Notes under the pieces: generated by a model
Seen by the model: the letters and a program-made list of their open reading frames with translations, nothing else
What the model was told of the DNA's origin: nothing
Databases searched by the model: none
Program-made: the position numbers and the translations under genes
Shown: one piece after another, positions 1-25,014 of the stretch
Position numbering within the stretch: the first letter of the stretch is position 1
Layout of the letters: every line of letters begins with the position of its first letter
Source of the DNA: a virus
Taxonomy: Duplodnaviria; Heunggongvirae; Uroviricota; Caudoviricetes
DNA length: 37,558 nucleotides
IMG/VR virus record: IMGVR_UViG_2698536484_000025
Strand: one strand, 5' to 3'

Positions 1-1065
1 AATTCACTGTCGGCGAAGGTAAGTTGATGACTCATGATGAACCCTGTTCCATGGCTCCAGATGACAAACATGATCTCATATCAGGGACTTGTTCGCACCT
101 TCCTTAGATGAGATCATATTTGGCAAAAGCCAAACATACAGAACCAGTGACACAATCAAACAGAGGACGGCATAAATATATAACCGCACCCATAGCGTTC
201 GACATTTGTTCGGATTGTTCTGCATCCTCTCACTCCATTATTTAACGAATAAAAAAGCTGCGGTGCCGGGTGCCTCCCGGTGTCCTTTGGCTGGTTATCC
301 ACCGTGGACGGGGAAACAAGGAGAAATGAATGGACTGATATAACCATTTCCCCGCGTGCGCTTAGCCGCATTCACCGCAACGGAAAGAGCATTCTTGGTG
401 GACCTGTAGATTGGGATATGAACCCGTTACAGGAGAATGCTCTTACCTGTTACGTGCTCCGTTTCGTGGAGCTAACGGCGGGTGATCAGACCGCACCAGA
501 CTGGACTTATTTCAGCGTTATGCTCATGCCAGAGAATCAAACTGTGATGGTCGGTGCTGAACTCCGACACAGGGTTGTAGCAAGCCCCGCAAAGCGCGCA
601 CTACTGTAGTTGCGGCACATCAGCCTGTGCATTCACCACAATGTTGAGAACACTGGTTGTCACGCTGCAACGCAACATTTATTCGTAGATTGGGATATGA
701 CCCCGTTACGCCAGTGTTCTCAACGTTGTAGTGCCGGTTACGGTTCCGGCCAGGCCTCTTCCTCAACGGGGTGTTCTCCATACGGACTACCGTTTATTGG
801 TCGTTCCTGCGGTTTATGTTGTGAAGCCAGATGCTTATCTTCTGGTTGCTTCAAAGAGCTGCACTTCATCACAACGGTAAGAGCACTCGATGCATTTAAG
901 CCAAGCCCCATAAGGGAGAATGCCCTTACCTGTTGTGTTGTGATGACCGGTGCTGATCTCCGGCTTGCGGTTATTTCAGACTCTCACGGGCGTTTATTTG
1001 CCCCGCCGAACAGCTCTTTTCCGCAATAGCTGCAATGTCTTTCGCGCATCAGCCTGCGCATTCAT

Positions 1066-1153
1066 CACAACGGTAAGGGTACTTCGTAGGGATTCGAACC
1101 CTCTGCCAAGCACGGCGATCTCCGACGTCACAAAATACCCTTACCTGTTGTGT
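1066..1153 (-). other. tRNA-like remnant: T-arm-like hairpin enclosed by a 16-bp inverted repeat
   Basis: Plus strand 1088-1100 gggattcgaaccc is the complement of a tRNA T-arm (GGGTTCGAATCCC), but no complementary acceptor 5' strand exists. Flanked by inverted repeat cacaacggtaagggta (1066-1081) / tacccttacctgttgtg (1137-1153). Confidence 0.3.
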
Positions 1154-1229
1154 TGGTGCCGGTTAACGGACTCGAACCGCTGACATCCTGCTTACAAGGC
1201 AGGCGCTCTACCAACTGAGCTAAACCGGC
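1154..1229 (-). tRNA. tRNA-Thr, anticodon UGU, CCA encoded
   Basis: Minus strand folds as GCCGGTT-TA-GCTC-AGTTGGTA-GAGC-G-CCTGC-CTTGTAA-GCAGG-ATGTC-AGCGG-TTCGAGT-CCGTT-AACCGGC-A-CCA; 7-bp acceptor stem, anticodon loop CU-UGU-AA. Confidence 0.85.
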
Positions 1230-1233
1230 AATT

Positions 1234-1320
1234 TGGTGGGGAGTGATGGAGTCGAACCACCCGAGTCGCAATGACAGTAGATTTACAGTCTACCCCGCTA
1301 CCCCTACGGACTAACTCCCC
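1234..1320 (-). tRNA. class II tRNA with long variable arm, anticodon GUA (Tyr-type), CCA encoded
   Basis: Minus strand GGGGAGT...GTAGA-CTGTAAA-TCTAC-(15-nt variable arm TGTCATTGCGACTCG)-GGTGG-TTCGACT-CCATC-ACTCCCC-A-CCA. Acceptor stem perfect; D-arm slightly non-canonical (3-4 extra nt before D-stem). Confidence 0.7.
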
Positions 1321-1325
1321 TAAAT

Positions 1326-1402
1326 TGGCGATGGTGGGTGGATTCGAACCACCGACCGACAGCTTAGAAGGCTGCTGCTCTATCCTACTGAGCTACACCA
1401 CC
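1326..1402 (-). tRNA. tRNA-Arg, anticodon UCU (reads AGA), CCA encoded
   Basis: Minus strand GGTGGTG-TA-GCTC-AGTAGGATA-GAGC-A-GCAGC-CTTCTAA-GCTGT-CGGTC-GGTGG-TTCGAAT-CCACC-CACCATC-G-CCA; canonical cloverleaf. Confidence 0.8.
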
Positions 1403-1591
1403 ACTGTGCCGGGTACGTCTCCGGCGAGGGCTTCCACCTCCGTATGCTTTTCGGCGCACCGCGCCCTGGCTGCAATTCAGTAACAGGGGATGCATAACCC
1501 TGGCTTCCAGCGTGATTAGCGCCTTCAGCATGACGGGATATACCCGTAACCAACAAACTTTCCCATATACCATCAAGCAATGGCTGTTACG

Positions 1592-1692
1592 CGGGAGGGA
1601 CGTAACAGGTAAGGGCGCTGACCAGAAAGACCTGACCCTTCTCATTCATCTGGTTAATCACACCAGCGCCCTTACCTGTTGTGCCTCCCCGT
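1592..1692. other. structured element: 17-bp perfect inverted repeat enclosing an inner 6-bp hairpin, carries the conserved motif CCCTTACCTGTTGTG
   Basis: aacaggtaagggcgctg (1600-1616) pairs with cagcgcccttacctgtt (1663-1679); inner hairpin accaga/tctggt; outer gggaggg/cctcccc partial pairing. Confidence 0.3.
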
Positions 1693-2065
1693 TCCCTAAT
1701 ACACAGACGGGGACACTCTGCGGTCGATTTTTTTGACGGGGGACGACTCATACCCCGTGGCATCTGGTTTCTTAGGCCGCTACCATCATCAGATCATCGT
1801 TTGCATTTACTTTAATGGTCAGTTTCTAAACCGCCGCAAAGTCGCTAACCATGACGAAAACCCTGAAAAAAACGCCCACCCGAAGATGGGCAAACTGGAA
1901 GCTCGTAACGCACTTCGGCGTTGCCACTTAGGCGCATGGTCAACCTGGCAACTCGGTGGTTTGTCTGGGAGGACTAGGCCCAGCCATGCTTACCGCCGCG
2001 CCTGTCGCGGCTAACAGCTAAATCGCTCTATAAATCACGATTCATTGAGGCGATATTACACTGAT

Positions 2066-2082
2066 AAATTTATTAGAGCAAT
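2066..2082 (-). promoter_or_regulatory. C1 repressor operator (17/17 match to consensus ATTGCTCTAATAAATTT on minus strand)
   Basis: Plus strand aaatttattagagcaat at 2066-2082, overlapping the dmt stop codon. Consensus is from memory of P1 C1 operators. Confidence 0.6.
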
Positions 2083-4091
2083 ATACCCAAAACGTCATGA
2101 GCTACACCTCGAGTGTCCCCCTTACAAGACACAGAACGTCTGGCAAAAAGATGTTCCACTCTGAAGCCACTGTCATGATAAAGCTCTCTGATGTTTGGCG
2201 CGCCACTGTTAGTAATGAGAACCTTTGCACCTCGACGATGAGCATCCGTCAACAGAGACACCAGGCGTTTTTGCTCTTCAAACTTAAAGTCATGACCGGA
2301 ATAGTTCGTGAATCCCTCTGTATTTGGAAGCGGTTCATACGGCGGATCGCAAAAGATGACATCTCCTTCTCCGGCAGCTTCAATCACCGCTGCAAAATCA
2401 CCGCATACAAACTCAGACCGCCCTTCCGCACCGAGGAAGGCTTCCATCTCCTGTAATGGGAAATACGGAGTTTTATACTTCCCATAACCGACATTGAACT
2501 CACCGGCCTGGTTGTAACGCGTCAATCCGTTAAAACAATGTCGGTTCAGGAACAAAAACGCCGCTGCGCGATGTAAATCATCATAGACTTGTTTGTTAAA
2601 CGCATTCCGTACTGCCAGGAATCCCTCCTGGGTGTTGTAGTCCTGGAAGAACCGATGTGCCAGAGTGATAAGTGAATGCGCCTCGCGTTGCAGAGTCTTG
2701 TAAAAGTTAATCAGGTCAGCATTCACATCATTTAGCAGATTTTCCTGGTATCCGGCATTCATGAAGACAGCTCCACCACCGACGAAAGGTTCAATCAGGC
2801 GCTTCCCTTCTGGCAAATAGCGAAAGATTTGTTCCAGAACACCAAATTTTCCACCAGCCCATTTGAATATGGACCGTTCGAATTCTGCCGCTGGTTTAAC
2901 TTTTCGCTCTTTTGTTTCACGCCCTTCATTCTGCCGACATGCAGCCTTGGTTATCCGCTCGCCAATCCAGCGCATTACTGGTATCGCCATACTATTGCCG
3001 ATCGCTTTGTAACGCGGTCCGTCAGCTGCAAGCATTGCAGCCTCTTCTTCGTTCAAATCAGGAGAGTTTTTGCGAAGGTATGCCAGTTCATCTGAAGAAA
3101 CTTTTTTACGCTTTTCCGTAGGGATCAATGTATGTCCATCAGGAAAACCTTGCAGCCTTTCACATTCGACAGGGGTAAGACGGCGCATTCTACCGTCGCC
3201 GAGCAATACAATTGGTGCTTCATGGTTACATGTCAAAGTTGGTGCCGAATTATCGGTTTTTATCTCAGCCCCTCCTTGCCCATGTGCCATGGCAACTATG
3301 TTTGTATCATCGCAAGATCTGATAGCGATGTCTGAAGTATATCTGGTAGTTTCCTTCCCCTCGCCTCTGCTCGGCGCAATATTCCGGCGCACGCCTTCGA
3401 ACTCAAAAAGTACCGTTGCGGGATCGAGGTCTGTTCGAGCACTTGCGACAACAAACACGCGTCGGCGTCGTTGTGCCACTCCGAAGTATTGGGCATCAAG
3501 GATTCTCCAGGCCACCTTTCGCTGCGGTCCATAAATACAACCACACTGCGGCCACTTTGGAACATGGCAACCGGTTTTGCCATCCCACCGCCAGAACGCG
3601 TTGCTTTTTCCTGATTCAGGTCGATCACCTGGTTCAAATGGCACATCTTCTCCAGCCAATCCAGCAAGGAAACATCCGAAGGCGTTATCTGCCGATGACA
3701 AGACTCCTGGGACATTTTCCCAGACGATAACGGCTGGTTTGAGAAATGACTCAGCCCGTTTGTCGTCAATTGCATTTGCAAGCTCCACATACTTTAAAGT
3801 TAGCGCGCCACGCTCATCATCAAGCCCACCACGTAATCCCGCGATACTGAATGCCTGACAAGGTGTTCCCCCGACGAGCACATCAGGGGATTCGATTTCC
3901 CCAGCCAGGACTTTTTTGGCAAGTTTTGTCATGTCGCCAAGGTTGGCGACATGGGGCCAGCGGTGCGCAAGAACGGCAGATGGAAAAGACTCGATTTCAG
4001 CAAACCACACCGGACGCATACCCAACGGTTCCCAGGCAATACTCGCGGCTTCAATTCCACTGCAAACAGATCCATAGCACAGCTCTTTCAC
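2073..4091 (-). CDS. dmt: bifunctional DNA methyltransferase: N-terminal C5-cytosine MTase fused to C-terminal Dam-like N6-adenine MTase
   Basis: 672-aa ORF. N-terminal half has C5-MTase motifs ([10 protein letters not shown] motif [16 protein letters not shown] motif IV, ENVPG motif [11 protein letters not shown] motif [17 protein letters not shown]). C-terminal half has Dam motifs FKWAGGK and DPPY. GTG start overlaps the hrdC stop (GTGA). Confidence 0.9.
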
Positions 4092-4993
4092 TGCTTAGCC
4101 TCTCCACCAAGGGCATTTACCAGAGCATCAACCAGGCACGAAATTTCACTGGTCAACAGGAAGAAATCTGCGTCCAGTCGCTGCGCAACATCTTCACTAT
4201 CAATATCAGAGTTCTGCTCAAGCAATTCATCCGCAAATTTGACGCTGGTAAGGCTGAAGTTATGGTCCAGTGTAAATTTAATGCGGTTCTGCCAGTCGAG
4301 TGCCAACTTAGTGACGAGCTTGCCAGCTTCCAGGTGTGTGGATATTTCATCACTTCCCAAGTCCTGCTTTTTCACTCGGGCAATACCGCCATCCTCAAGC
4401 ACTGCCTTAAGTTCTGCCGCATCCCCCATTTGAAATCCCTGTGGAGCACTACCATCACGTACCCAGTCGGTCAGCGTTAATTCAATGGGATTTTCAACAC
4501 TCAGGGGAACAACAGGAAGAGAACCCAGAGACTTACGCATAAGCGCGAGCATATCCTCTGCCTGCCGCGCGCTGGCATTGATATAGATACGTTTAGTTGA
4601 ACCGTCGTAGATCGCCTGGATAACAGAAAACTTTGAAAAAGCCCGTGGCAGAAGAGAATGCAGAACTTCGTCTTTCAGGGAGTCCTTCTCTGTTTTCTTC
4701 AGTTTACGCGCTTGTTCTTGCTCAAGTTTTTCAATTTTTTCTTGAATAGCTCGCTGGATAACCGGCGGGGGAAGAATTTTTGTTTCGCGCTTTGCTTCAA
4801 CAAGGATAAAACCATTTCCATGCATAGCGATAACTTCGGAATTATCACCAAATGGAGATACAAAACCGAACTTGGCCATATCCTGACTACCGCATGGCGT
4901 GAAAAGGATCATTTTCTTTTTATCTTCTAAGTCGGTCAGATCCGCCTCACGAGAAAGTTTATAAATAGTAATGTTTTTCCAGTGCTTAAACAT
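4088..4993 (-). CDS. hrdC: RdgC-like recombination-associated protein (homolog of RdgC)
   Basis: About 301 aa from ATG at 4993 ([13 protein letters not shown], RdgC-like N-terminus) with SD AGGG 8 nt upstream. Track ORF extends to 5107 but the upstream extension lacks an RBS. Confidence 0.8.
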
Positions 4994-5341: not shown

Positions 5342-5358
5342 ATATTTATTAGAGCAAT
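5342..5358 (-). promoter_or_regulatory. C1 operator-like site (16/17) in divergent intergenic region
   Basis: Plus strand atatttattagagcaat at 5342-5358, between the minus-strand uhr/hrdC/dmt operon and the plus-strand genes starting at 5440. Confidence 0.5.
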
Positions 5359-17667: not shown

Positions 17668-18264
17668 ATGGCTGTGATTCCAATGTCGTACTCCCCGGGT
17701 ACTGTCGCTCGTCGATTTTCGATCCTGGACGGAGTTACCATCCAGGGTGTGCTTTACCAGGTTATATGGGATTCCAAAACCCCATTTGCAGCTGTAATAG
17801 AGGCTGCGCCTTCTGTTATCGATGGTGATATGCGCCATAAGGTTGTCGCTACTCTTGAACTTCAACGTCGCCCGCAGCTTGAAGGCGTACTGGTAAGGAA
17901 GTTCTGGGAGGATAGCGATGTTGCCCAGATTGAAGGTATCGTGGTTGATGGAACCGTCCGGGATGTCGGTTTAGCTACTTTTGTTTACGAAACCGTAGCC
18001 TCAAAAGCTGGTGTTGTTTTGCTCAGTGATAATGAGCAATACGAAGGTGGAAAAGCTCTTTGGCAACACATCGCCCGTCGCTCTTCCGAGCTAAAAGTGT
18101 TTATCCTCGACACCGATGCCGCTCAGTATTACCCGTTTGACGGCGAACGTGTTTGCTATGACGGGGTAAGTATTCCTGAATCCGAGATATGGAGTGAACA
18201 CCCAGATCGAAGTAAGCATGGGGTTGTTCTGGTCGCTGAATCCATAATTGGAAAGGCGGCATAG
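17668..18264 (+). CDS. hypothetical protein
   Basis: ATG 17668 with AAGGGGGA 7 nt upstream (track ORF starts at 17632, too close to its SD). About 198 aa, no clear domain. Confidence 0.65.
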   Translation: MAVIPMSYSPGTVARRFSILDGVTIQGVLYQVIWDSKTPFAAVIEAAPSVIDGDMRHKVVATLELQRRPQLEGVLVRKFWEDSDVAQIEGIVVDGTVRDVGLATFVYETVASKAGVVLLSDNEQYEGGKALWQHIARRSSELKVFILDTDAAQYYPFDGERVCYDGVSIPESEIWSEHPDRSKHGVVLVAESIIGKAA

Positions 18265-18446
18265 CAGTAAAAAATTCCTTGCTCCTAAAAAGGGGAGAGG
18301 GCTAATCTACGTATGCTAAGCATAGATATGGCCTCAGATTAATGTTAAGCGTCTTGCAGGACGCGTAATGTTATCTGGGGCTTTCTTCTATCTGCTTGTC
18401 GGGTAATGCCTGAAGCAGATAGCCTCAAGCACCCGCAGCGATTGTA

Positions 18447-20469: not shown

Positions 20470-20510
20470 CTTTGCACTTAGAAAACGAAATTTATTAGAG
20501 CAAATTTTTC
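20470..20510 (-). promoter_or_regulatory. kilA-repL promoter with overlapping C1 operator (Op53-type, 16/17)
   Basis: Plus strand aaatttattagagcaaa at 20488-20504. On the minus strand the operator overlaps a -35-like TTGCTC with a TAAGTG -10-like 17 bp downstream. Confidence 0.7.
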
Positions 20511-21838: not shown

Positions 21839-21895
21839 AATGGCAGCCTCCTTTTGCTAATTTAAGGAGCTACCGCGTGAGGTTCCAATCTCAAT

Positions 21896-21976
21896 GGCGG
21901 TAGCACTGACTGGGTTGGAACTACCGGCGCAAAAGGGAACCGGCCTGCCTTTCGGCAGCCCAGCCAGCACTACCAT
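21896..21976 (-). ncRNA. c4: c4 antisense RNA (immI regulator); boundaries approximate
   Basis: Minus-strand segment between direct repeats a1b1 (plus 22053-22080) and a2b2 (plus 21850-21890). It carries CCCUUUUGC and GUUCCAACC, complementary to the GCAAAAGG and GAUUGGAAC elements, and folds into stems (CUGCC-GAAA-GGCAG; CCGG...CCGG). Confidence 0.5.
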
Positions 21977-22022
21977 TGATCTCGGAGCTATGTGCTACGT
22001 ATGGTTGTGCGATGGCATGACA

Positions 22023-22046
22023 CAAAAAAAGACGCTTTTGGCGTCT
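22023..22046 (-). terminator. hairpin plus U7 on the minus strand inside the immI leader (attenuator or terminator-like)
   Basis: Minus strand GACGCC-AAAA-GCGTC followed by TTTTTTT; lies between the a1b1 repeat and c4. Confidence 0.4.
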
Positions 22047-22173
22047 ATGTCGCCTTTTGCATTATCCGGGGTTCCAATCCCGGCATCCGTTTTACTAAGA
22101 TGCCTGTTTAGGATAAACCGAAAATGCATTAGCACGCAAGCAAGTTAATGTAGCATATGAAGCTAAAAAAATA

Positions 22174-22190
22174 AAATAATTAGAGCAACT
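22174..22190 (-). promoter_or_regulatory. C1 operator-like site (14/17), candidate immI operator (Op51-type)
   Basis: Plus strand aaaataattagagcaac; core ATTAGAGCAA conserved. Lies between immI and the divergent AT-rich island. Confidence 0.5.
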
Positions 22191-22335
22191 TGCAACCATG
22201 TAAATTATTTCTCTGGTAACTAAAATGTATGAGTTTAATTGATATGGGTCAAAGATTTTGACCATTGCATGGTGAAACTTTATGCTACAAAATGTTATTT
22301 TAAGGCGTTTTATCTGTGGCAGGAGATAGTTAATC

Positions 22336-22686
22336 ATGTCATCTGAACATGTTCGTAAAGGTGTAACAAATGCGAAATTCAATGAAGAGCAATCTAATAT
22401 TCTCTTTATTGAAATAGGAATTCTGTCAATACTGATAGGTTTAATGTCTAAATCATGGTGGGCCTTTGGCGGTTCTTTTCTTGGACTGATTTTTAGTTTA
22501 AGAATAAAATTTCTAGCAATACCATTGATGATTGTATTTAGCTTAGTATGGGGAGCTATTGGCTATAGTATTGGTACTTTGTTTGAATCAACAGCAGCAA
22601 GTATTGTTTTGGGGGTAATTGCTTTCCTGAGTGGTTTGGGTACTCATTTTGCTGCCGTGCAATGGGCAAATGATATTGCAGAATAA
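22336..22686 (+). CDS. small multi-pass membrane protein (AT-rich island gene 1)
   Basis: 116 aa; ATG 22336 with AGGAGA 9 nt upstream; three to four hydrophobic helices (ILFIEIGILSILIGLM; FLGLIFSLRIKFLAIPLMIVFSLVWGAIGYSIG; IVLGVIAFLSGLG). Confidence 0.75.
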   Translation: MSSEHVRKGVTNAKFNEEQSNILFIEIGILSILIGLMSKSWWAFGGSFLGLIFSLRIKFLAIPLMIVFSLVWGAIGYSIGTLFESTAASIVLGVIAFLSGLGTHFAAVQWANDIAE

Positions 22687-22708
22687 TTACAGATAAGAAG
22701 CGAAAAGA

Positions 22709-23185
22709 ATGAATATGAGATGGTTTTTATTATTTGTATCGTTAGTTTCAGCAGGAACATTTGCAAAAATTGATCCTCTACAATGGAATGTAATTGAAGA
22801 GAGAGGGGGGAGAGAATATACAATCCATAATCATAATGGTGATAAGATAAGTTTTTTATGTGATATGGGATTCATGTATGGTTCACCAGATAGTGCAGGT
22901 AGTTTAGGCTTGTTGCTAAGTTCGTCGAATAATAAAAAAGAGTATAATGCTGACAAGAATAAAATAGTATTAACTATAGATGGTGATCAATATCCTTTTA
23001 GCAATCTTGGATCAATGGTTGGAGATTCTTGGTGGTATGCCTTTTGGCAAGATGCAGCAGATTCAAATGCTAATATGATTGATGCTTATGTTGATAATGA
23101 AAAAATTGCTACATTCCCTCTTTCTGGGCTAAGTAAGTTGTATCAACAAGCCAAAATGGATGGATGTATTAAACGAGGCAAATGA
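22709..23185 (+). CDS. secreted or periplasmic protein with signal peptide (AT-rich island gene 2)
   Basis: 158 aa; N-terminus MNMRWFLLFVSLVSAGTFA-KIDP resembles a Sec signal peptide with an AxA-like cleavage site; Trp/Asp-rich C-terminal part. Confidence 0.75.
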   Translation: MNMRWFLLFVSLVSAGTFAKIDPLQWNVIEERGGREYTIHNHNGDKISFLCDMGFMYGSPDSAGSLGLLLSSSNNKKEYNADKNKIVLTIDGDQYPFSNLGSMVGDSWWYAFWQDAADSNANMIDAYVDNEKIATFPLSGLSKLYQQAKMDGCIKRGK

Positions 23186-23259
23186 TCTTTCTGTGTTAAA
23201 GATTAACGCAATCAATAAAACATTGGTTGCGTAATATTCTATTATATAAATGGAATAAT

Positions 23260-24294
23260 ATGACAAAAATTACTAATTCTAATGAGTTGAAGTTGCTGTA
23301 TAAACAGTCAGTGCTCATTCCATCATACAAAGATCACGTAGCGATCTTGCAAAAACAATTAGGAATAGAAAAACATTCTTTTCAAAATATGCCAAGATTG
23401 AATAGACAAGCTGTAATTAGTAACTCTCTTCGAAAACAATTGGCTAGTATACCGAACTTGGCTGGAATAGGCAGCAAGTATCGTGAACATATCGCGATTT
23501 TACAGAAACAGACTCAGGCTCTTTTCCCTCATGATGCAAATAGATATATTCAAATGCTAAGGAAACAGGCCGAAATAGCTATGCCATTACGAAAACAGCT
23601 TGAGGTGCTTAATAAGCAAGCTGGTTTAAATAACATGCAAGCGATACTTAAAGAATTACAACAAAGTGCAAGTTATAAAATAGATGTAAGCCAAGACATA
23701 AAGAAAGTACTAGATCACTATGCTAGAACAAGAAATGCTTCATTACATCAAATAATAGAGCAGGGGATTTCATCTATTGCGCAGGCTTATGCTGAAGGTG
23801 CTACTGAAACATCACACACCAAAAGTAATGTTCAAAATAAAGGATTAAATAAACCTAGCTCAAAGTTTGTTGATTCATTTAAAGAGCTTCCTTATCCACT
23901 GCAATGGTTACTAATGGTTATATTTTCTCAAGTTGTGTTTGGTGCTTTTATTGATTACGGAAAAGAGAAAACCTTGCTGGGAATACACAAGGCAGAATCA
24001 TATTTTATATCTCTGTTTGAGGATAAACCAATATCAAAACAACAATTAATTAAAGAAAACAAAGAAATTAGTTGGGAAGATCTCAATGGTTTTCGTTTTA
24101 TAACTGGTGAGAACGTAAGATTACACGTCAGTCCTTCTATAAATAGTGAGGTGATTGAATGCATTGGCAAAAATACTATAGTGGCTGTTTTAGATAAAAA
24201 AGATCGCCAATGGCTTTTCGTGCAGGTTAAATCAGGGGACGAGTTTATTACTGGATGGATTACACGAACATACACAAAGCCTCTTAAGGCTTGA
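23260..24294 (+). CDS. membrane protein: N-terminal K/Q-rich repeats, one TM helix, C-terminal SH3b-like domain (AT-rich island gene 3)
   Basis: ATG 23260 (track ORF starts at TTG 23227). Repeats HVAILQKQ / EHIAILQKQ / LRKQAEIAMPLRKQLEVLNKQ; TM LPYPLQWLLMVIFSQVVFGAFIDYG; C-terminus FRFITGENVRLHVSPSINSEVIECIGKNTIVAVLDKKDRQWLFVQVKSGDEFITGWITRTY is SH3b-like. Confidence 0.75.
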   Translation: MTKITNSNELKLLYKQSVLIPSYKDHVAILQKQLGIEKHSFQNMPRLNRQAVISNSLRKQLASIPNLAGIGSKYREHIAILQKQTQALFPHDANRYIQMLRKQAEIAMPLRKQLEVLNKQAGLNNMQAILKELQQSASYKIDVSQDIKKVLDHYARTRNASLHQIIEQGISSIAQAYAEGATETSHTKSNVQNKGLNKPSSKFVDSFKELPYPLQWLLMVIFSQVVFGAFIDYGKEKTLLGIHKAESYFISLFEDKPISKQQLIKENKEISWEDLNGFRFITGENVRLHVSPSINSEVIECIGKNTIVAVLDKKDRQWLFVQVKSGDEFITGWITRTYTKPLKA

Positions 24295-24392
24295 ATTTTA
24301 TCACCGTATCTTGGGGCTGGGTGTTGATGACGATGTGCTACTTGAAGTACTTGGGTTTTTTAACGCAGCATCTGAAATGTGTAGACTGACCG

Positions 24393-24416
24393 GTAACAAA
24401 TGACAACTCGTAGAAT
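24393..24416 (+). promoter_or_regulatory. candidate late promoter: GTAACAAATGAC box, 6 nt, then TAGAAT hexamer, overlapping an 11-bp perfect palindrome
   Basis: Same architecture as 12102 and 17566. Palindrome ctcgtagaatc (24406-24416) / gattctacgag (24430-24440) overlaps the -10-like hexamer. Confidence 0.4.
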
Positions 24417-24423
24417 CGGGTAA

Positions 24424-25014
<591 letters not shown>

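Follow-up and report, generated by a model that had tools for sequence, protein, structure and literature searches.

A repeat–transmembrane–SH3b protein in the superimmunity slot of a P1-like phage-plasmid, with a candidate role at the cell envelope

Several small accessory proteins of mobile elements, among them T4 Imm and Sp, P22 SieA and HK97 gp15, sit at the inner membrane and act at the envelope, and envelope-anchored sensors are also found in defence systems such as Zorya (ZorAB, in which ZorB is peptidoglycan-binding) and Kiwa (KwaA). In phage P1, the interval from c4 to pmgC is taken up by the superimmunity cassette simA-simB-simC, and simABC is one of eight hypervariable, low-GC regions described in P1-like phage-plasmids (PMC9603915). 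The window analyzed here, a viral DNA of 37,558 nucleotides, is such a P1-like phage-plasmid. Upstream of the region of interest, on the opposite strand, are ant, icd and the C4 antisense RNA, while downstream we find pmgC (24448-25014), a tail tube gene, pmgB and a 1140-aa Sit transglycosylase. Comparison with P1 showed that simABC has been replaced between these landmarks by a co-oriented island of three genes (22100-24400), with a GC content of ~0.345 against ~0.47 for the backbone. All three genes are on the plus strand: gene 1 (22336-22686) encodes a multi-pass hydrophobic protein of 116 aa (PHROG 15014), gene 2 (22709-23185) a protein of 158 aa with a signal-peptide-like segment at its N-terminus (PHROG 3429), and gene 3 (23260-24294, stop codon included) the 344-aa protein that is the subject of this report. 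A search of the PHROGs with the island proteins returned only families without an assigned function.

A C1-operator-like site with three mismatches (22173-22189, minus strand) lies between the island and the C4 RNA; it aligns with Oc4 of P1 and thus puts one border of the replaced segment just beyond the immunity region. At the other end, a short GC-poor hairpin with weak resemblance to a terminator covers the stop codon of gene 3 (24277-24292, plus strand), ahead of a conserved late promoter and pmgC, and the flank conserved with P1 starts at approximately 24387. The island thus resembles P1 SimABC in its slot between c4/icd/ant and pmgC, and in being a cassette of three genes for predicted envelope-targeted proteins within a variable region of low GC content. 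We considered whether it is simply a diverged sim cassette and rejected this, because none of the comparisons by BLASTP revealed similarity to SimA, SimB or SimC: gene 3 against SimC gave E values of at least 2.2, gene 2 against SimC of at least 6.7, and gene 1 could not be aligned with SimB at all. On sequence grounds, the gene 3 protein is not a Sim protein; the locus is shared and homology is absent. 

Some other features of the window were recorded along the way. The P1 C1 operator consensus is matched five times where 0.18 matches would be expected by chance, including sites at 2066-2082, 5342-5358, 20488-20504 and 22173-22189 with 0, 1, 1 and 3 mismatches, respectively (all on the minus strand). 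An isrK-family sRNA match (22025-22103, minus strand; 58.3 bits, gathering score 50) abuts the C4 antisense RNA (21893-21980, minus strand) between icd/c4 and the island. A match to the sok antitoxin RNA (18260-18434, minus strand; 89.7 bits) implies that the phage-plasmid carries an addiction module of the hok/sok type, and three consecutive tRNA genes lie at 1157-1402 on the minus strand.

Starting from the ATG at 23260, gene 3 has 344 codons for amino acids; this is the form used by RefSeq (WP_023352812.1, 'SH3 domain-containing protein'), while the open reading frame on which the original prediction was based starts at a TTG at 23227 and is 355 aa long. Comparison of three P1-type alleles gave dN/dS values of 0.11–0.26 for the SH3 domain, 0.20–0.42 for the transmembrane (TM) helix and linker, and 0.42–0.66 for the repeats, and since values from 0.11 to 0.66 were obtained in every segment, this is a real and functional gene under purifying selection. 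The C-terminus is strongly constrained and the N-terminus evolves fast, with the repeat region as the fastest segment of all (43–57% amino acid identity between alleles). We are confident of the overall architecture, which consists of helical repeats, a single TM helix and a C-terminal SH3b domain.

The N-terminal region (residues 1-205; 23260-23874, plus strand) is predicted to be cytoplasmic and to consist of degenerate amphipathic helical repeats. The original prediction had described three ILQKQ/LRKQ units; the helical repeats held up, but the count did not. The motif L[QRN][KR]Q matches seven times in the first 200 residues, always within residues 30-120, with ILQKQ occurring twice (29-33 and 80-84), LRKQ three times (57, 100 and 110), and LNRQ (47) and LNKQ (117) once each. 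Shuffled sequences had a mean of 0.07 matches, and seven were reached in 0 of 20,000 shuffles. The spacing of these degenerate units is irregular (7–24 aa), and Tandem Repeats Finder detected no tandem repeat in the DNA of the gene, from which we take the repeats of this allele to be of old origin and degenerated.

Following the repeats is the sole Kyte-Doolittle (KD) peak of the protein, a 19-residue hydrophobic helix with a value of 1.81 (residues 213-231; 23896-23952, plus strand; PLQWLLMVIFSQVVFGAFI), predicted to be a signal-anchor TM segment. In the numbering of the 355-aa frame this is 224-242, in agreement with the single hydrophobic span that had been placed at about 220-245. Residues 232-277 (23953-24090, plus strand) form a juxtamembrane helix and linker, in which alignments show the conserved pattern DYGKEK...ESY...DKPI...W..LN, and residues 278-341 (24091-24282, plus strand) form the SH3b domain, which is predicted to be periplasmic. 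An AlphaFold2 (AF2) model of the full-length protein, built from 29 homologues, was uninformative (pLDDT 38), and a good model was obtained for the C-terminal 145 residues only (pLDDT 89.3). Here, helices are predicted at 212-253, 260-266 and 272-277, the first of them being a single long helix that holds the hydrophobic span (pLDDT ~95), and the C-terminal domain is predicted to adopt the small beta-barrel fold of SH3 domains. Pfam SH3_3 matches residues 285-338 with 26.0 bits, 1 below the gathering cutoff of 27 bits (E = 1.1e-5). The nearest folds are extracytoplasmic, peptidoglycan-binding SH3b domains, examples being those of the phiSM101 endolysin (4krt), dipeptidyl-peptidase VI (3pvq/4r0k), LytB (7pj3) and a Bacillus cereus NlpC/P60 protein (3h41). 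The fold check that had been proposed along with the claim of an SH3-like C-terminal domain thus came out in its favor, and the model assigns the domain to the SH3b fold class.

We built a profile from the last 145 residues and searched 1.84 billion representative proteins with it at E ≤ 1e-3, which yielded 915 matches. Among the best 150, the complete TM–linker–SH3 module was found at the C-terminus in 81, and the remainder were generic multi-SH3b proteins. Pfam SH3_3 is matched at E ≤ 1e-3 by 81 of 82 family members (best value 1.3e-12), and the profile search shows the repeat–TM–SH3b architecture to be widespread in Gammaproteobacteria, with members in Thalassotalea, Klebsiella aerogenes, Vreelandella, Providencia, Psychrobacter and Methylotenera, among others. 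The N-termini of the family contain no Pfam domain, and consist of lineage-specific tandem repeats with periods of 12, 13, 17, 19, 24, 28 or 34 residues. When modelled as helices they are amphipathic, with a median z of 3.2 against shuffled sequences and 82% above z = 2. The TM span is conserved in its hydrophobicity (mean KD 1.92) and not in its sequence, it frequently has a polar or charged residue at mid-span, and in some relatives it falls under the usual KD threshold of 1.6. The profile also matched short proteins of 150–210 aa. The idea that these are a minimal, repeat-less TM–SH3 core was rejected, as they turned out to be collapsed repeats or split ORFs. In locus L082 (7414-8582), the 18-aa tandem repeats (NPAISATLQEIDRINQMV) are interrupted by a run of N at an assembly gap, and gene callers report a truncated product of 193 aa, while in L081 the N-terminal part is found in a separate, overlapping ORF. 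Database entries for short members of the family should therefore be regarded with caution.

As to the orientation in the membrane, the gene 3 protein has no N-terminal signal peptide, and the numbers of lysine and arginine residues on the two sides of its hydrophobic helix are even. A bias did emerge from the family as a whole: in 59 members, the flanks of the helix contain on average 1.95 K+R on the N-terminal side against 1.22 on the C-terminal side, with net charges of +0.83 and −0.58, respectively, and the N-terminal flank is the richer one in 32 members and the C-terminal flank in 12. Because of this family-wide positive-inside bias, and since there is no signal peptide, the prediction favors an N-in/C-out topology with the SH3b domain in the periplasm. 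The proposal of a bitopic protein with a periplasmic SH3b domain thus agrees with the charge distribution in its relatives.

How the gene moves is seen from plasmids and genomes. The full island is present in 27 of 541 PLSDB plasmids with common flanks, and 64 PLSDB plasmids contain a homologue of the SH3 gene, with three main allele classes among them (≥97%, ~67% and ~62% identity), against 182 plasmids for homologues of gene 2. Among complete E. coli genomes, 69 of 5,426 (1.3%) carry the gene, and 69 of the 70 copies are on plasmids. In NZ_CP076303 (L078), a near-identical cassette has retained genes 1 and 2 (93% identity), and the SH3 gene has been exchanged for a gene encoding a 297-aa DUF4760 protein on the strand opposite to the cassette (L078 4029-4922, minus strand). 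This protein has no match in PADLOC or NCBIfam, and its gene is another cargo of the sim slot. The third gene is absent from the cassette of NZ_CP103469, and NZ_CP049847 and NZ_CP039843 have divergent SH3 alleles with different genes upstream. In phage-plasmids of Citrobacter and Salmonella, the homologue is found alone and on the strand opposite to its neighbors, and on a Yersinia contig it travels alone after umuDC-like genes. Since the third slot is swapped or empty elsewhere and the gene is solitary in these elements, gene 3 is an independently mobile and swappable module, not a fixed part of the cassette. The neighboring gene 2 is itself variable: its alleles in the window (22709-23185) and in L077, L079 and L080 share 27–37% identity at the same position, which suggests that this family is a separate, fast-evolving and presumably periplasmic factor. 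The C-terminal region of gene 3 is also present, at 98% identity, on a 2.8-kb contig (L006, DXHF01000172.1) of a metagenome-assembled genome named 'Candidatus Paenibacillus intestinavium', and this contig is probably mis-binned Enterobacteriaceae phage-plasmid DNA.

Outside the sim slot, ~25 loci had flanks that were usable for a survey of the neighborhood, and relatives of gene 3 were recurrently found together with known defence genes, these being raw counts with no background set for comparison. Eight of the loci place the gene in or beside a Type I restriction-modification (RM) operon or its remnant (L010, L043/44, L046, L047, L064, L073, L082 and L083). The order in Thalassotalea (L010) is hsdM-hsdS-SMODS-SLATT-hsdR-YgjP-SH3. 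In three metagenomic loci (L043/44, L046 and L047), the start of the SH3 gene overlaps the stop of a gene for a YgjP-like protein. It follows hsdR in L073 and hsdS in L064, adjoins an hsdM fragment in L083, and in L082 lies between hsdM and hsdS within a dense defence island. Such overlaps of the SH3 start with the preceding stop are frequent in the Type I RM contexts, where translation of the SH3 gene appears, in one subfamily, to be coupled to that of a YgjP-like metallopeptidase or HsdS gene. The same operons also carry SMODS-SLATT, KAP NTPase/PDC-S20, YhcG and zeta-toxin-like genes as further defence insertions. Other members lie near an OLD-family ATPase-nuclease gene (one case), next to an HNH nuclease and a C5 methylase (one case), beside an integrase at the end of the contig (five IMG/VR contigs), in a prophage or satellite (one case), and in an integrative island with antirestriction genes (one case). 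Five or six of the ~25 loci, including L048, L050, L052, L055 and L057, have no recognizable defence neighbor. In L053, finally, the member (262-1176, plus strand) is located 78 bp upstream of a Drt1a RT-nitrilase gene (1254-4967, plus strand; PADLOC E = 0), and a validated RT-nitrilase system employs an unnamed partner with one TM segment (PMC9122126). The idea that the family is this Drt1b or '1TM' partner was rejected, as none of the ten relatives scanned matched such a model and the adjacency was seen only once.

Searches for an established system gave no further lead. The gene 3 protein had no match in the 2023 PADLOC catalogue (PADLOC-DB v2.0.0) at E ≤ 0.1, and neither had nine of ten relatives, the tenth giving a marginal match to RmrA (E = 0.022, 11.9 bits). 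No NCBIfam model matched the family, a profile search of the PDB sequences found no solved relative, and no copy of gene 3 turned up when 50,697 deposited phage genomes were searched by tblastn. A literature search on the accession, on SH3 domains in defence or superinfection exclusion, on SH3 genes embedded in Type I RM operons and on DUF4760 returned nothing relevant, and no publication on the family was found.

The location in a superimmunity slot with swappable cargo, the relatives at RM, defence and prophage sites, and the variable repeats together point to an involvement of gene 3 in an envelope conflict with other phages. In the mechanism that we propose, the product would be a bitopic inner-membrane protein that keeps ~205 N-terminal residues of amphipathic helical repeats in the cytoplasm, crosses the membrane once by means of a signal-anchor helix (213-231) that runs on as a juxtamembrane helix, and may be tethered to the sacculus by a periplasmic SH3b domain (278-341) of the type with which cell-wall hydrolases bind peptidoglycan. 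Entry of the genome of a superinfecting phage would then be hindered, or signalled, by the membrane helix together with the rapidly changing repeats in the cytoplasm, and the gene would act as an autonomous accessory ('moron') gene of the hypervariable sim slot that shields the lysogen from other phages at the envelope. The repeats, as the most variable part, evolve several-fold faster than the anchor. The earlier suggestion that the protein senses or binds components of the envelope or of the incoming phage fits with the sim slot, with the relatives in defence islands and prophages, and with the peptidoglycan-binding domains that are its closest predicted folds. Judging from these genomic associations, we estimate the probability of an anti-phage role overall, and of protection of the lysogen at the envelope by a wall-tethered bitopic moron protein, at about 0.5. 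A more far-reaching and more tentative proposal, to which we give distinctly less weight, is that repeat–TM–SH3b proteins constitute an unrecognized and widespread single-gene anti-phage module, a peptidoglycan-tethered sentinel in which the repeats set the specificity, which is exchanged among hotspots of phage-plasmids, prophages and satellites and inserted in Type I RM operons, and of which the window contains the version of the sim slot.

The main alternative to an anti-phage role is a non-defence envelope function, in which the protein would be a peptidoglycan-tethered scaffold of the inner membrane, or a lysogenic-conversion factor altering the wall or the division of the host, and would merely ride on mobile elements. 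A cytoplasmic N-terminus, a TM helix and a wall-binding domain in the periplasm is indeed the layout of housekeeping wall-associated proteins, bitopic SPOR-domain proteins being an analogous case, and both the loci that lack a defence neighbor and the absence of a PADLOC match for gene 3 would be consistent with it. A housekeeping protein would, however, hardly be expected to occur so sporadically and almost exclusively on plasmids, to be encoded by a low-GC gene in the sim slot, to recur within RM operons, or to diversify its repeats at a rate that resembles genes in an arms race, and we regard this function as unlikely. Another possibility keeps the anti-phage role and changes its nature, namely that the protein is a membrane effector or sensor of abortive infection, where the repeats respond to a product of the phage or to a signal from a partner system, the TM helix oligomerizes, permeabilizes the membrane and kills the cell, and the SH3b domain merely positions the protein. 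Type I RM operons likewise harbor known abortive modules such as PrrC, variation is concentrated in the part predicted to be cytoplasmic, the TM helix often has a polar or charged residue at mid-span, and the member beside Drt1a brings to mind the 1-TM partner of the validated RT-nitrilase systems (PMC9122126). On the other hand, a conserved domain for binding peptidoglycan would be of no obvious use to a pore-former, and yet constraint is strongest on the SH3b domain; the sequence of the TM helix is not conserved, and there was no match to Drt1b or another PADLOC effector among the ten relatives scanned. We therefore consider this mode of action doubtful. A sensor that relays its signal to adjacent systems would be a further mode, and the strong constraint on the SH3b domain makes us lean slightly towards an envelope-level mechanism.

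The gene neighborhoods could also be read as those of an accessory subunit that tethers or regulates co-encoded partners at the membrane: genes 1 and 2 in P1-like plasmids, and in other contexts YgjP-like peptidases or the complexes of Type I RM systems. Stops and starts overlap or abut with YgjP-like, HsdS or gene-2-like genes, and gene-2 homologues precede the SH3 allele in every P1-type cassette examined, as would be expected for a subunit. The partners are wholly different from one context to the next, however, genes 1 and 2 are found without the SH3 gene, and the gene is solitary and on the strand opposite to its neighbors in the Citrobacter and Salmonella elements, so that this role appears quite improbable. 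Barely credible, in our view, is a soluble cytoplasmic protein, with the hydrophobic stretch buried as a helix in its core and a cytoplasmic ligand bound by the SH3-like domain. The KD peak of 1.81 is just moderately above the usual threshold, some relatives do not reach it, and the positive-inside counts of the gene 3 protein itself are balanced. Against this, hydrophobicity rather than sequence is conserved in the family and accompanied by the positive-inside bias, AF2 predicts one long helix with no helix to pack against within the 145-residue fragment, and the SH3 folds nearest to that of gene 3 belong to extracytoplasmic domains that bind the wall.

If the family does serve defence or exclusion at the envelope, its architecture would be a novel one among the few systems that act or sense there, combining a wall tether and a single membrane pass with rapidly evolving repeats. 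It would also explain one alternative cargo of the superimmunity hotspot of P1, and give an identity to a gene that Type I RM operons commonly carry without annotation. Resistance genes are spread among the Enterobacteriaceae by P1-like phage-plasmids, and exclusion cargo on them thus has a bearing on phage therapy and plasmid ecology. If there is no phage phenotype, the product stays an ordinary 'SH3 domain-containing' hypothetical protein.

Compared with what is described, the gene 3 protein shares features with several systems and coincides with none. SimA and SimB of P1 open with hydrophobic, signal-peptide-like N-termini in their translations, and SimC is processed and exported, whereas the gene 3 protein has a predicted internal signal-anchor instead. 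Its C-terminus has the fold of the SH3b (SH3_3, PF08239) wall-binding domains of peptidoglycan hydrolases, but there is no catalytic domain, and the SH3b domain stands behind a membrane helix and a predicted cytoplasmic repeat array. Characterized SH3b domains are mostly from Gram-positive hydrolases, so peptidoglycan binding by the gene 3 protein is an extrapolation from these. T4 Imm and Sp, P22 SieA and HK97 gp15 are similar in concept, without homology, and to our knowledge none of them joins a repeat array to an SH3b domain. With Zorya ZorAB and Kiwa KwaA it shares the concept of a wall-coupled membrane protein in defence islands, but it has no homology to them, differs in fold, is encoded by a single gene, and came without a PADLOC match or a motor or effector partner that we could find. 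One relative is named YgiM in a JGI annotation, and YgiM of E. coli (DUF1202/SH3 family) likewise combines SH3_3 with a single TM segment. In YgiM, an N-terminal signal sequence is followed by the SH3 domain and a C-terminal TM segment, the reverse of the order in the gene 3 protein, and YgiM is not known to have a repeat array. In summary, the SH3 annotation of the protein was already available from RefSeq, and what is new is the view at the level of the family: its architecture, the repeats that are specific to each lineage, the predicted topology, the way the gene is swapped in and out of the sim slot, and its repeated occurrence within Type I RM operons.
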